DNA of 64,000 nt from Escherichia coli O127:H6 str. E2348/69 (GTDB taxonomy: Bacteria > Pseudomonadota > Gammaproteobacteria > Enterobacterales > Enterobacteriaceae): assembly GCF_000026545.1 (NCBI RefSeq), contig NC_011601.1. One strand, given 5' to 3'. Positions 50,801 through 53,800 of this stretch are shown here, piece by piece (within the stretch, counting starts at the first letter, position 1; each line of letters starts with the position of its first letter). The position numbers are program-made.

Positions 50801-53800
50801 AGTGAGGGGCTGTCTCAATCGAAGGTAGCGAAGCATCTCGGCGTTAGCGTGAGCACCGTTAAACGTCACTGGAACAAGGGTTAGGGGTGATGACCTACAA
50901 CCAAATGAGGTGCCAGCACTGGCCGTTACTGGGCTGTGGGAGATGGATGACCTACAGCTTTTGTATTTATTTCAGAGTGTTATGTTATGCGAAATCTCGT
51001 AATGCTATGATTTATAGTGTATTTTCGTATTACTTGCGGCTCTTGATGCGAAGAGATGGCGGGGCTTTAGCCGTGCCAGACGATGAGCATCAAGATCAGA
51101 TTGTGAATGTGATTCATCACTGAACAATTCGAGGGATGGGGCAGGGGAAGGGATCAAAGGCTGCGTTGTCCAATCACTAAGCTAGATTTGAAGCTGGTCA
51201 ACACGTTAGTAGTATCTTTAAAGTCGCATTTTAAATACATGTACAAAAAAGGGTTCTTCCCCTACATCCCCTTCTCCTAATCAGTGTTATCGCTTCACGC
51301 TCACCACTGGCTGCGCTTCTCGCTGTGCTCCAGCCCACTCGATCGCCTTTGGCTCATTCCCGGTCTTCGCCTGCTGTGATGCTCGGCCACTCTACGCAAC
51401 CGTGCTTGCCGTGGCATGCAACGCGGCGGGGATGTGTAGTGGAACGGTACTTTTTATCTATATTATTAATTTAATCAATCACATACTGTTATCGGTAGGT
51501 ATTCTTCAAAACATCTTCATTCATTTCTGTATCGTTCAATCATCTTTCTTGTTCGTTTCCTTTCAGGTCTTAGCCGTTGGTCATTGGTCTTACTGCCCGC
51601 TGTGCTACTGCCAGCTATGGCACGCCGTCACGGTCTACTGTCTGTCACCTGTCCTACTGCGTTCACTGTCTGCCGTCTGTCATCCTGTCGGATTCCATCC
51701 GTTGACGTTCCGCGCTCGCTTGTTTCGGCTGCGCCGCGCTCGCTCTGCGTATCTAGCGATACTATATCACTATAGACACTTTCATAATTATATAATGATT
51801 ACAGTAACTTATGTTTTCTGTTTTAAAAGCTACTAATAAGGAGATATAGAGCATTACTTACCCGCTTTTGACCGACAAAAATCGCGTTGTTAAGTATTGC
51901 CAGCCCAGGCTCAATAAGGCTTAGCGAGGTGGTGGCTAAAAAATGAGCTAATGAAGGTATCTACTAAGGAGAAAGAATAACTCCCGAAGCGCGACAAACT
52001 CTCCGATTTTGAAAGTGACTATTAAGGCAGATAAAGACACTGACACTGTTGCTGACATGAAAACTTCTAAAAGGGCAGAGAGTCTGCCGAACCCGTACCG
52101 CTGACCCAACCTGAGCTAATACCTACCCCTATTTTCTGGAGATTTCACCATGCCAACAAACCTACGCCGCCTGCTTGCGCAGGCTGCCGACGCTGACCCG
52201 CTCAATACTGCGGACGCAGATGTACAGCAAATGATCGCTGACGGGATTGTTATTCGACGTTCCAAGATATGCCCTGTAAAGCGTAAACCCGTTAAGGCGG
52301 CATACAACACAAAGACCGAAGAGTTTTATTACAATGCAGATGGCTCCGCGATGACCTTGCGGGAGTGGCGAACGCTGCACGGTGTTCAACCGAAGAAACA
52401 AAAACAGCGCTCTGACACTGGGTTGCGGCAAGTCATCCAGCCCGGCGACGCGATTCACTGCCGACGCGCTGAGATTGAGCAATGGCTTAATAAGAAGCCC
52501 GCTCGTTATGTTGACCCGCTGCCGCCAGATTTTCCCGGTGTTCGCGTAGACGATGCCGCATTGAAACCGCGCGAGCACGCCGTGCCGGAAGCGACAACCG
52601 GACAGAATGCTTTTCTCAAAGCCTGCCGCGAGTTCCTGATTTGCGATGAGAAGACCATGCGCCGTATCAGTCGGGGCATGAACCAAATGGAAGCTATGCG
52701 CAACGCAGATTTCAAACGCTACGGAGACTCAGGGGAGTTTCGTCAATTGTGGTGTGGAGAGTCGAAGCCTACCGAAGATAGATTTAATAGTTCTAATCAT
52801 CATTGTGACCCGAACGGCTTGGCTGCTTCGCCGTCTGTGCCGCCACTGAATACTGCACCGTATGAGTTCCGCCCGCTGGCTCGCTGTGACCGAAACGCAC
52901 GCGTTAGCCTGCTGCCACCTGATGGGCTGGAGTGGAGGCCGGGGCAGTTGTCTGTTGCTGATGCGATCTTTTCCCGTGGCAGTGATGTGCTTGCCGTACT
53001 GCCGACCGGGTATGGCAAAAGCGCCGCCTTCACTTATCCATTGATTTATGAGTCCCGCGCTGGCATTGGCCTGTCTGTAATCGTGGTTCCTACTAATACC
53101 CTTAAGCGTCAGATTCTCCGCCAGTTGCGGGAGGCTGGCATTCACGCTGTGGCCTTTGGCGATAAGCTACCGAGGCACCGCAACGCACAACAACTGGCGG
53201 GACTAGCAGCCGGGGCGTTCCGGGTTGCTGTTGTTTCGCCTGAACATCTGGTTCCGTCGAGTCAGGTTCTCGCGGCGCTGATGGCTTATGGCGTTGATCG
53301 TTTTATTATCGATGAGGCACACACGGTCAAAGACTGGGATTTCCGCCCAGCTTACGACGCAATGCAGCACACACTACAGAATGCTTTTCCCTCGGCTCAG
53401 CGCTGCGTGTTTACGGCTACTCTACTACGAGAAAATGAGCGCGGTTTAATGGAGGCGCTGGGATGCCGTGGCGATTACGTTACATTCCGTGCTGATGTTG
53501 CTCGCGAGAATATCCAGTTGATTCCGGTCAGGCAGTGCCGCCAGCGATACCGCGCGGCTGTTGGTCTGGTCGAGGCTCTGCCAGAGGAAGAGAAGACGCT
53601 CATTCTAGTCAATGACCTTAAGACGTTGCGGGCGTACCTGAAACTCTTCGGCGACCGGGCGCGCCCATATCACTCGAAGACGATGCACCTGAGCAACGAG
53701 GAACGCCACGCAAACGCTGAGTGGTTTGCCTCTGCGCCGGGCGCGATTCTGATTGCTACTAAAGCCTTCGGGCTGGGTGCTGATGTTCCTGATATCCGTA

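Follow-up and report, generated by a model that had tools for sequence, protein, structure and literature searches.

What is the function of 1.26 kb of DNA without a credible gene, placed between two genes of a mobile island? The question is raised by a stretch of the Escherichia coli O127:H6 E2348/69 chromosome (positions 50887-52149 of the 64 kb window analysed here; the match to the chromosome of this enteropathogenic strain, in standard laboratory use, is 100%). Its left neighbour encodes a serine recombinase and its right neighbour a protein annotated as a DEAD/DEAH helicase; both lie within an island of 15.06 kb (47343-62403) inserted at tRNA-Leu(CAA). An earlier reading of this DNA, made from its letters only (the sequence-only reading), had proposed a replication origin, with iterons and an unwinding element, served by the helicase, or else a long structured non-coding RNA or leader. 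The decisive fact that it missed is homology to the end of a phage genome, that of Bonnellvirus, a group of T7-like podoviruses (Autographiviridae) that encode their own single-subunit RNA polymerase. The best-supported reading is that the island represents a previously undescribed family of satellites of T7-like phages, with the stretch as the putative control region by which it would exploit its helpers. For the stretch itself, we consider it probable that it is a control region driven by a phage polymerase and carrying a cis-acting module derived from the helper; we are less sure of the roles of single elements.

Part of the stretch matches the left end of Bonnellvirus genomes

Megablast against 50,697 phage records returned 15 that match the window from 51610 or 51635 to 51813, at 85-98% identity. 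All 15, three of which are unannotated, belong to one Bonnellvirus-like group of the Autographiviridae; they include megetsur, glasur, usur, HHU8, LF82-23, Kc261, RZ4 and ROV85, and megetsur, glasur, HHU8 and LF82-23 were isolated on E. coli. Identity over the module so defined (Table 1) is 98% with HHU8, 96.6% with megetsur (179 bp) and 85-93% with six other phages. The remainder of the stretch, 50887-51640 and 51800-52160, gave no phage match in a distant blastn search.

The counterpart of the module is also non-coding in the phages. It lies in a gap of 1.5 kb, bounded on one side by the endolysin gene, with which the annotated late genes end in most of these records, and on the other by a SAMase gene, the first of the early genes. 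In phage J8-65 a direct terminal repeat of 259 bp is annotated, which starts 72 bp past the endolysin stop. From an alignment of J8-65 with megetsur, and from the motif GGGCGGGTATCTGTCTC at the right boundary of the repeat, the matched DNA is located about 130-310 bp to the right of the terminal repeat; it adjoins, on the left, three to four strong sigma-70 early promoters.

The sequence-only reading had pointed out a pyrimidine-rich block at 51290-51780 and repeated CTGTC and CTACTG units, and both were confirmed. The purine fraction of the block is 0.367, compared with a window mean of 0.499 (standard deviation 0.038); as low a value was found in only 0.08% of equal-sized segments of the 64 kb, and this is the most pyrimidine-rich tract of the window. 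Between 51560 and 51750, CTGTC occurs 6 times (0.6 expected) and CTACTG 3 times (0.05 expected), and A accounts for 8.9% of the bases. The phage tract is likewise poor in A (6.7%). The strand bias and the CTGTC/CTACTG units of the sequence-only reading are therefore partly features of the phage left end that were copied.

Inside the module, a block of 37 nt is invariant in the 13 sequences aligned (5 islands and 8 phages); the divergent J8-65, kept outside that alignment, differs at this block. Elsewhere, islands and phages hold the same polymorphic alleles in a mosaic, the Kluyvera island being 94% identical to LF82-23 and the E2348 island 98% identical to HHU8. This mosaic points to repeated exchange between islands and phages, and argues that the module must match the phage in order to work.

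Several features of the phage genomes were recorded in passing. The two megetsur copies of the 20-bp element TAATGATTACAGTAACTTAT (40564-40583 and 40643-40662) flank AT-rich DNA at the left end, and variants are present in J8-65; the repeat may belong to the phage origin. Read in reverse, it loosely resembles the promoter motif described below. 'Hypothetical proteins' are annotated across the A-poor tract of Kc261 (41017-41556), HHU8 (3753-4301) and glasur (41898-42374), and the start of a J8-65 coding sequence (5664) coincides with a promoter-like motif; these annotations are likely artefacts. Between J8-65 and megetsur, the region of the sigma-70 early promoters is about 98% identical, in contrast to the terminal repeat and the left-end module, which have diverged strongly: evolution is much faster in the terminal cis-elements than in the early promoters. 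Finally, the glasur record is broken within the module. This break was rejected as the physical genome end because the J8-65-type motif of the right repeat boundary is conserved about 260 bp upstream.

Promoter-like elements in the phages and in the stretch

A pattern derived from the phages alone, TGAARGnnnCTRT, is present at three intergenic sites in each of four phages. The first, on the + strand, precedes the DNA-metabolism genes or middle region; the second, also +, lies between the polymerase gene and the late genes; the third, on the - strand, occupies the left end. Two extra phage matches fall at annotated coding-sequence starts, and the J8-65 middle site overlaps one. The element is conserved over about 20 bp, and two of the three sites per phage are in the direction of the genes. 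Its core is the same at all three sites of a phage and changes from phage to phage: GTGTC in megetsur, GTGAC in glasur, GCTAC in Kc261 and GTAAC in J8-65. The four polymerases are well conserved in their C-terminal halves, except for a hypervariable patch with an indel (TMLNNIN, IALNNIN, SPM-HLH or TTM-GIK). By eye, we take this patch to align with the T7 specificity loop around N748; on that alignment, the core varies between phages alongside the polymerase.

A CTATAG initiation region is found in the post-polymerase and left-end sites of three phages and in the island element P0. Variants are CTATAT at the middle sites, CTGTAG, CTGTAT or CTGTTC in J8-65, and CTAnTAAGG in the island elements P1-P3. 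Given the positions of the sites, the concerted changes of the core and the CTATAG-type region of most sites, promoters for the phage polymerase, oriented from TGAAAG toward CTATAG, are the most economical explanation, and we infer that the TGAARGnnnCTRT motif is such a promoter.

In the 64 kb window the phage-derived pattern has two matches only, at 51772-51784 (-) and 52010-52022 (+), and both are in the stretch; about 0.009 would be expected in a region of this size, by our scaling of 0.47 per window. The first belongs to P0 and the second to P3. The sequence TATCACTATAGACACTTTCAT (51765-51785) recurs, inverted, in the phage, just past the RNA polymerase gene and ahead of the late genes. 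A T7-like reading of TCACTATAG (51767-51775) on the + strand was considered and rejected, since the part common to the J8-65 sites is on the other side; this orientation is also ruled out by the other two phage sites, which face genes only when read from TGAAAG to CTATAG.

Three rightward elements, P1-P3, precede the helicase gene, compared with 0.03 expected by chance for a pattern drawn from the island sites themselves. Every island variant keeps three to four such elements upstream of the operon, even the variants without phage homology. In the Kosakonia island, P1 is an exact Kc261-type element (TGAAAGCTACTATA), and Kc261 is a Kosakonia phage. The purine-rich block reported at 51830-52120 was found to be real but modest (purine fraction 0.564, in the top 7% of segments), and the repetition of TAAGG within it is clear: 4 copies (0.35 expected), with CTAnTAAGG present 3 times (0.01 expected). 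What had been taken for a leader does precede the helicase gene; it is, however, an array of three promoter-like elements.

A second phage-derived segment at the terminal-repeat boundary

When whole phages were compared with the whole island by blastn, matches were limited to the module (with an internal duplicate of P0, 28 bp), a 44-bp segment at 49902-49945 and the capsid gene. The 44-bp segment is a copy of the phage DNA that abuts the left boundary of the terminal repeat. In the phages this boundary sequence is conserved even in J8-65, where it ends exactly at the annotated start of the repeat (TCGACCC...), and the island homology stops after TCGAC. The copy is present in 11 of the 11 island loci that span the position, always at the border between variable cargo and conserved backbone. 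Taken with the module, it means that the island holds DNA from both sides of the phage terminal repeat, two non-coding segments that are 93-98% identical to the flanks of the repeat. The segment at 49902-49945 is a candidate site for recognition and cleavage by terminase, and a better candidate than the module.

About 48 bp past TCGAC, the island carries GGGCGGGCTGTATATCG, judged by eye to resemble the right-boundary motif of the phage repeat. It follows a hairpin (Table 1) which in the Enterobacter island reads CCTCGCC-GAAG-GCGAGG, that is, with two compensatory pair changes. The segment 49946-50010 may be a miniature terminal repeat.

Coding potential and mosaic structure of the stretch

The claim that the stretch holds no credible open reading frame (ORF) stood. 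The ORFs at 50887-51123 (78 amino acids), 51402-51836 (144 amino acids), 51584-51775 and 51325-51474 are unconserved; the 78-residue frame is interrupted by two to three stops in related islands, and the 144-residue frame is split into pieces in differing frames. The non-coding DNA of the islands is a mosaic in which blocks 1 and 2 (Table 1), common to most variants, precede an interchangeable module. Compared with the common E. coli island type, E2348/69 differs by about 12% in 50887-51536, and at only 5 of 500 bases in 51537-52036. Block 1 as a site for the recombinase is one possibility. The order of recombinase gene, 1.1-1.5 kb of non-coding DNA and helicase gene is constant in all variants.

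The island that carries the stretch

The island has its own integration functions and attachment (att) sites (Table 1). The same att pair surrounds the Trabulsiella and Enterobacter relatives, and a single copy only is found in other loci. The island is present in 58 of 5426 complete E. coli genomes (about 1%), with one chromosomal copy each. The islands of Trabulsiella, Enterobacter and Kluyvera occupy the same tRNA gene, and the Kosakonia locus likewise has the att core. The architecture, the integrase and the att sites are kept across these five genera, and the island capsid is 92-94% identical in Trabulsiella, Enterobacter, Kluyvera and Kosakonia. The genera that bear the island overlap the host range of Bonnellvirus. 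Beyond attR (62628 onward) are a type I restriction-modification system, a DUF4942 protein and McrB, an arrangement of tandem mobile or defence elements at leuX; the restriction-modification system and McrB identify the site as the leuX hot spot for mobile elements.

The only helper-related morphogenesis or packaging genes detected are those for the capsid, scaffold-like and TerS-like proteins. Over its full length, the island capsid protein has 54-56% identity with the capsid proteins of four Bonnellviruses, and the alignment of the scaffold-like protein with the phage scaffold runs to the C-terminus of both. Portal, large terminase and tail families were not matched among the 20 island ORFs scanned against PHROGs; about half of the ORFs had no detectable family.

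The genes from the helicase to an endonuclease (52150-59996) are on one strand throughout, with tight spacing. The helicase matches the PADLOC 'DpdF' model PDLC02858 over its full length (E 2e-277), and its NCBIfam DpdF and RecQ scores are far under the cut-offs. Its assignment as the DpdF of a Dpd system was rejected, as no dpdA-K cluster is found next to it; PDLC02858 may derive from satellite helicases, and could mislabel such islands as Dpd defence. By a simple promoter scan, the sole sigma-70-like promoter in 49800-52300 is at 50248-50277, upstream of the serine recombinase gene and between the two phage-derived segments, and no such site was found between the recombinase and helicase genes. 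A search for an invertible segment on which the serine recombinase would act gave no convincing inverted repeats; by analogy with Cre for P1, the enzyme may resolve or circularise the DNA of the element.

The cargo between attL and the backbone (47343-49900) differs from strain to strain: it encodes uncharacterised proteins in E2348/69, whereas UTME-7 and N18-04097 have a protein with a TIR domain. Next to the integrase gene, at 60038-60940, is an AbiTii gene. The island thus doubles as a carrier of defence genes.

Table 1. Features of the island and of the stretch, in window coordinates.
Feature	Position	Strand	Description
attL	47320-47342	+	23-bp core, 3' end of tRNA-Leu(CAA); exact direct repeat reaches 31 bp (47312-47342)
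Copy of phage DNA abutting the left boundary of the terminal repeat	49902-49945	+	93% over 44 bp to megetsur 39988-40030; includes the first 5 nt of the repeat, TCGAC
Hairpin CCCAGCC-GAAG-GCTGGG	49978-49994		Followed by GGGCGGGCTGTATATCG
Serine recombinase (resolvase/invertase family)	50315-50884	+	phrog_125, E 5e-55
Non-coding block 1	50887-51150		About 85-90% conserved in most variants; stops in every frame tested; direct repeat GATGACCTACA, two copies
Non-coding block 2	51215-51460		Pyrimidine- and GC-rich over 51290-51440; common to most variants; no phage match
AT-rich core	51440-51560		GC 0.30
Helper-derived module	51635-51813	+	A-poor CTGTC/CTACTG tract, invariant 37-mer, P0, one 20-bp repeat
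37-nt block	51726-51762		CGGCTGCGCCGCGCTCGCTCTGCGTATCTAGCGATAC; inverted repeat GTATC-n4-GATAC; predicted hairpin
P0 (promoter-like)	51764-51789	-	TGAAAGTGTCTATAGTGATA; leftward; core GTGTC (megetsur type); same sequence upstream of phage late genes
20-bp element	51793-51812	+	TAATGATTACAGTAACTTAT; one copy in island, two in phage, 79 bp apart; phage homology ends just past it
P1 (promoter-like)	51822-51845	+	AAAGCTACTAATAAGG; pattern at 51826; core GCTAC (Kc261 type); kept in all variants with the same module
P2 (promoter-like)	51950-51973	+	TGAAGGTATCTACTAAGG; pattern at 51954; core GTATC
P3 (promoter-like)	52008-52031	+	TGAAAGTGACTATTAAGG; pattern at 52012; core GTGAC (glasur type); 140 bp upstream of helicase ATG
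RecQ-family SF2 helicase	52150-53994	+	N-terminal ~250 residues uncharacterised; first gene of a 17-gene co-directional run to 59996
TerS-like protein, 69 residues	54466-54675	+	Weak: 45% over 40 residues to the N-terminus of the J8-65 small terminase, pairwise E 7e-6
Scaffold-like protein, 226 residues	55897-56577	+	Last 100 residues resemble the last 100 of the 410-residue phage scaffold; 31%, pairwise E 1e-4
Major capsid homologue, 331 residues	57350-58345	+	phrog_267, E 3e-64
Tyrosine integrase, beside attR	61028-62239	-	phrog_1, E 3e-35
attR	62381-62403	+	Second copy of the att core; sets the right limit of the island

A proposed model for the exploitation of the helper

As no sigma-70-like promoter precedes it, the operon that runs from the helicase to the capsid gene would be silent in the uninfected cell. 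Infection by a Bonnellvirus would supply the helper polymerase, with which P1, P2 and P3 would fire rightward into the operon, whose capsid, scaffold and packaging-adaptor proteins would then be made. The difference in core among P0-P3 may widen the range of helpers able to switch the island on. From P0, a leftward transcript rich in purines and poor in U would be made across the A-poor tract. An AT-rich spacer of 40 bp separates the divergent P0 and P1, an arrangement that recalls T7 origins, in which AT-rich DNA adjoins a phage promoter, and the element may repeat here the role that it has at the phage left end. For the module we favour a transcription-activated start of replication by the phage replisome, processing of concatemers being the alternative. 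Together with the copy at 49902-49945, the module would let the helper terminase package island DNA into small capsids. The capsid protein and the short scaffold would build these small heads; 15 kb compared with 42 kb fits T=4 compared with T=7, by our scaling.

A more ambitious version joins these proposals: the island would be the first satellite family of Autographiviridae phages, combining the sensing of a polymerase, the exchange of modules with phages and packaging from a terminal repeat. The four cores (GTGTC, GCTAC, GTATC and GTGAC) would make a multi-helper switch that senses the RNA polymerase of the helper itself, and repeated exchange of the left-end module would keep the cis-elements matched to the circulating phages. 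Packaging would start from a miniature concatemer junction (49902 to about 50010), and the serine recombinase would circularise the linear DNA after injection. We propose this combination tentatively, with clearly less than an even chance.

Points against the model and alternative explanations

Several observations weigh against a helper-driven satellite. Promoter identity, induction, replication and packaging are all deduced from sequence, and no mapped promoters for Bonnellvirus were found in the literature searched. After CTA, P1-P3 read TAAGG and not TAGTG as the phage sites do, and for this reason they might go unrecognised by the phage polymerase. A leftward P0 makes no obvious sense for gene expression. 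The module is replaced by a different one in three E. coli variants (LT883142, N9 and N18) and in the Trabulsiella island; nothing in the phage collection matches the alternative E. coli module, one 20-mer of which was searched in IMG/VR and was absent there too, and the Trabulsiella module was compared with four phages only. The type of helicase mostly tracks the type of module, which is also what a helicase-specific origin would predict; the exception is ARS-C101, where a phage-like module is joined to the other helicase type. An excised attP junction was not found in IMG/VR viral or JGI metagenome contigs; as to whether induction, replication and packaging need a helper, this absence is uninformative. 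Lastly, AbiTii and the variable, defence-type cargo mean that the island could be mainly a defence element.

The alternative that survives best is specific to the module, which would be an origin of the T7 type, with replication as its principal task: transcription from P0 and P1 would open the 40-bp AT-rich spacer, and the DNA polymerase and primase-helicase of the helper would replicate the island. The combination of promoter and AT-rich DNA is laid out as in the primary and secondary origins of T7, the module was copied from the equivalent position of the phage, a purine-rich and U-poor leftward transcript would favour stable RNA-DNA hybrids, and the invariant 37-nt block is found beside the P0 start. 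However, the AT-rich DNA is behind P0, whereas it is downstream at the T7 primary origin, four island variants are devoid of P0, and the Bonnellvirus origin is itself unmapped. We regard such an origin as possible, with clearly less than an even chance.

It is less likely that the module and the boundary copy are primarily terminase or concatemer sites, used either for packaging or, in defence, only as decoys that poison the packaging of the helper. The two phage-derived segments do come from the two sides of the phage terminal repeat, all members of the island family that span the position have the boundary copy, plasmid transduction by T7 reportedly depends on an origin together with the concatemer junction, and the island encodes a TerS-like fragment as well as Abi and TIR-type cargo. 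On the other hand, the module corresponds to DNA 130-310 bp outside the terminal repeat and hence does not coincide with the cleavage site; in the island the two segments are separated by 1.69 kb that include a gene, compared with 380 bp in the phage; and the packaging signals of the genus are unmapped.

A classical origin, as in the first proposal of the sequence-only reading, appears improbable. It would resemble the PICI/SaPI Rep-ori or the P4 alpha-ori: the N-terminal domain of the RecQ-like helicase would recognise the short repeats as iterons, and the AT-rich core would melt. Part of what the sequence-only reading proposed was sound: the stretch is non-coding, presumably cis-acting and tied to the helicase operon, possibly also to replication, and a helicase with an uncharacterised N-terminus of 250 residues is encoded directly downstream. 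An AT-rich core is indeed present at 51440-51560, its GC content (0.30) being in the lowest 1% of segments, and would be suited to an unwinding element; it lies between GC-rich segments, and AT-rich cores recur in the alternative island module. The correlation between helicase cluster and module type, mentioned above, is in keeping with such an origin. However, origins of the iteron type have at least three to four direct repeats of about 17-22 bp at regular spacing, and 'iteron-like' proved an overstatement here: Tandem Repeats Finder gave no array, and the best direct-repeat family consists of three imperfect 23-mers (70-78% identity) at irregular spacings of 49 and 28 bp, plus motifs of 5-6 nt. 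The two similar GC-rich segments exist (51308-51327 and 51727-51749, the second within the 37-nt block), but what they have in common is limited to GGCTGCGC plus CTCGCT. Furthermore, the phages from which the repeat tract was copied lack a helicase of this kind, and ARS-C101 combines the phage-like module with the other helicase, so that service by the adjacent helicase was not supported. In PICI/SaPI elements, moreover, the origin is located 3' of rep and not 5'.

An island devoted to defence is, in our estimation, also improbable. Phage-polymerase promoters would then switch on an operon for abortive infection or interference, with the capsid homologue as a poison subunit and no transfer. 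The same promoter evidence, AbiTii, the variable defence-type cargo and the lack of an excised form among public contigs are all compatible with it. It does not readily account for the conservation of architecture, integrase and att sites in five genera, nor for the association of capsid, scaffold-like and TerS-like genes with repeat-boundary DNA, which are the needs of a transferred element. Known satellites also interfere with their helpers, and defence and satellite roles are not exclusive.

A long structured RNA or riboswitch-like leader, which a long, ORF-free and strand-asymmetric stretch might suggest, is highly improbable. The covariance search against Rfam that had been suggested (Rfam 15; 49000-54000 scanned) gave no match in 50887-52149, even at E <= 1. 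Folding was ordinary, with z-scores of -1.6 and -0.9 for the two strands of 51245-51772 and +1.5 for the putative leader (51825-52160), which is less structured than its shuffled controls. The lone Rfam hit of the scanned region, ctRNA_pGA1 at 49906-49999 (20.8 bits, E 0.86, compared with a gathering score of 45), overlaps the hairpin zone at 49946-50010. Finally, a decayed pseudogene or junk spacer, to which the mechanical ORFs of 78 and 144 amino acids might point, is hardly tenable, as neither frame survives in relatives (the sole protein-level signal sought), the 37-nt block is invariant across the aligned phages and islands, and sub-blocks reach 99% identity between island lineages for which it is about 88% elsewhere.

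Novelty and significance

No description of satellites of Bonnellvirus or of T7-like phages was found in the full-text literature searched, whose coverage leaves out most subscription journals, so that a prior description is possible. Satellite-like mobile elements at the same tRNA-Leu locus have been reported in general terms in a preprint (10.1101/2025.09.15.676423). If the proposed satellite family is real, the capture of promoters for a phage-encoded RNA polymerase would be a new logic of induction, the island would be a guide to the signals, so far unmapped, for replication and packaging in a phage genus, and it would provide a natural system of small T7-type capsids. T7-like podoviruses are workhorses of phage therapy and of molecular biology; the island, found in about 1% of complete E. 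coli genomes, could make such phages less effective, or be disseminated by them.

Comparison with known satellites and with T7

To our knowledge, the known satellites (P4, PICI/SaPI, capsid-forming PICI, PLE and PICMI) exploit myoviruses and siphoviruses. The pair formed by P4 and P2 is similar to the arrangement proposed here from sequence, in that an integrated element has its own integrase and helicase, a helper packaging site, helper-dependent late promoters and small capsids. P4 differs by its cos ends, its external scaffold Sid and the absence of a capsid gene of its own. Its promoters answer to the Ogr/delta activator of the host RNA polymerase, its helper is temperate, and its alpha-ori/crr origin is of the iteron type.

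PICI/SaPI elements, among them the cos-type SaPIbov5 with its Ccm capsid homologue and the capsid-forming PICIs, are likewise integrated, at tRNA genes or elsewhere in the chromosome, with a length of about 10-15 kb. A helper induces them, they divert packaging and some have a capsid homologue, all of which is found or proposed for the E2348/69 island too. In PICIs, however, a helper protein lifts a master repressor, the Rep-iteron origin is 3' of rep and the helpers are temperate siphoviruses; in the E2348/69 island no repressor was identified, the switch would rely on promoter specificity, and the presumed helpers are virulent podoviruses with direct terminal repeats. PLE of V. cholerae (helper ICP1) and PICMI of marine vibrios are also satellites of virulent phages, and PLE makes use of small capsids and of the helper replication machinery. 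Their helpers belong to unrelated families, PLE has a RepA-iteron origin and the TcaP scaffold, and PICMIs are devoid of capsid functions; we know of no use of helper-polymerase promoters by either.

Similarities with T7 itself are found at two levels. First, the T7 left end consists of the terminal repeat, an array of short repeats (SRL), phiOL and then the A1-A3 promoters. The Bonnellvirus left end has a comparable series: terminal repeat, A-poor tract of short repeats, promoter-like element, AT-rich DNA and three to four sigma-70 promoters. The island copies the middle part of this series, and the module occupies the position of SRL and phiOL in T7; the Bonnellvirus left-end element points left toward the terminus, whereas phiOL points right. 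Second, a plasmid that carries a T7 origin and the concatemer junction reportedly suffices for replication and packaging by T7. The island has candidate equivalents of both, promoter-like elements that flank AT-rich DNA and the copy of the terminal-repeat boundary. It differs from such a laboratory construct as a natural mobile element with a capsid gene, and the Bonnellvirus signals are predicted from their sequence.

In conclusion, the virulent terminal-repeat podoviruses as presumed helpers, the putative polymerase switch and a capsid homologue unaccompanied by other detected virion components place the island outside the satellite families known to us. By analogy, its proposed logic is closest to that of P4, and is also close to that of plasmid transduction by T7.

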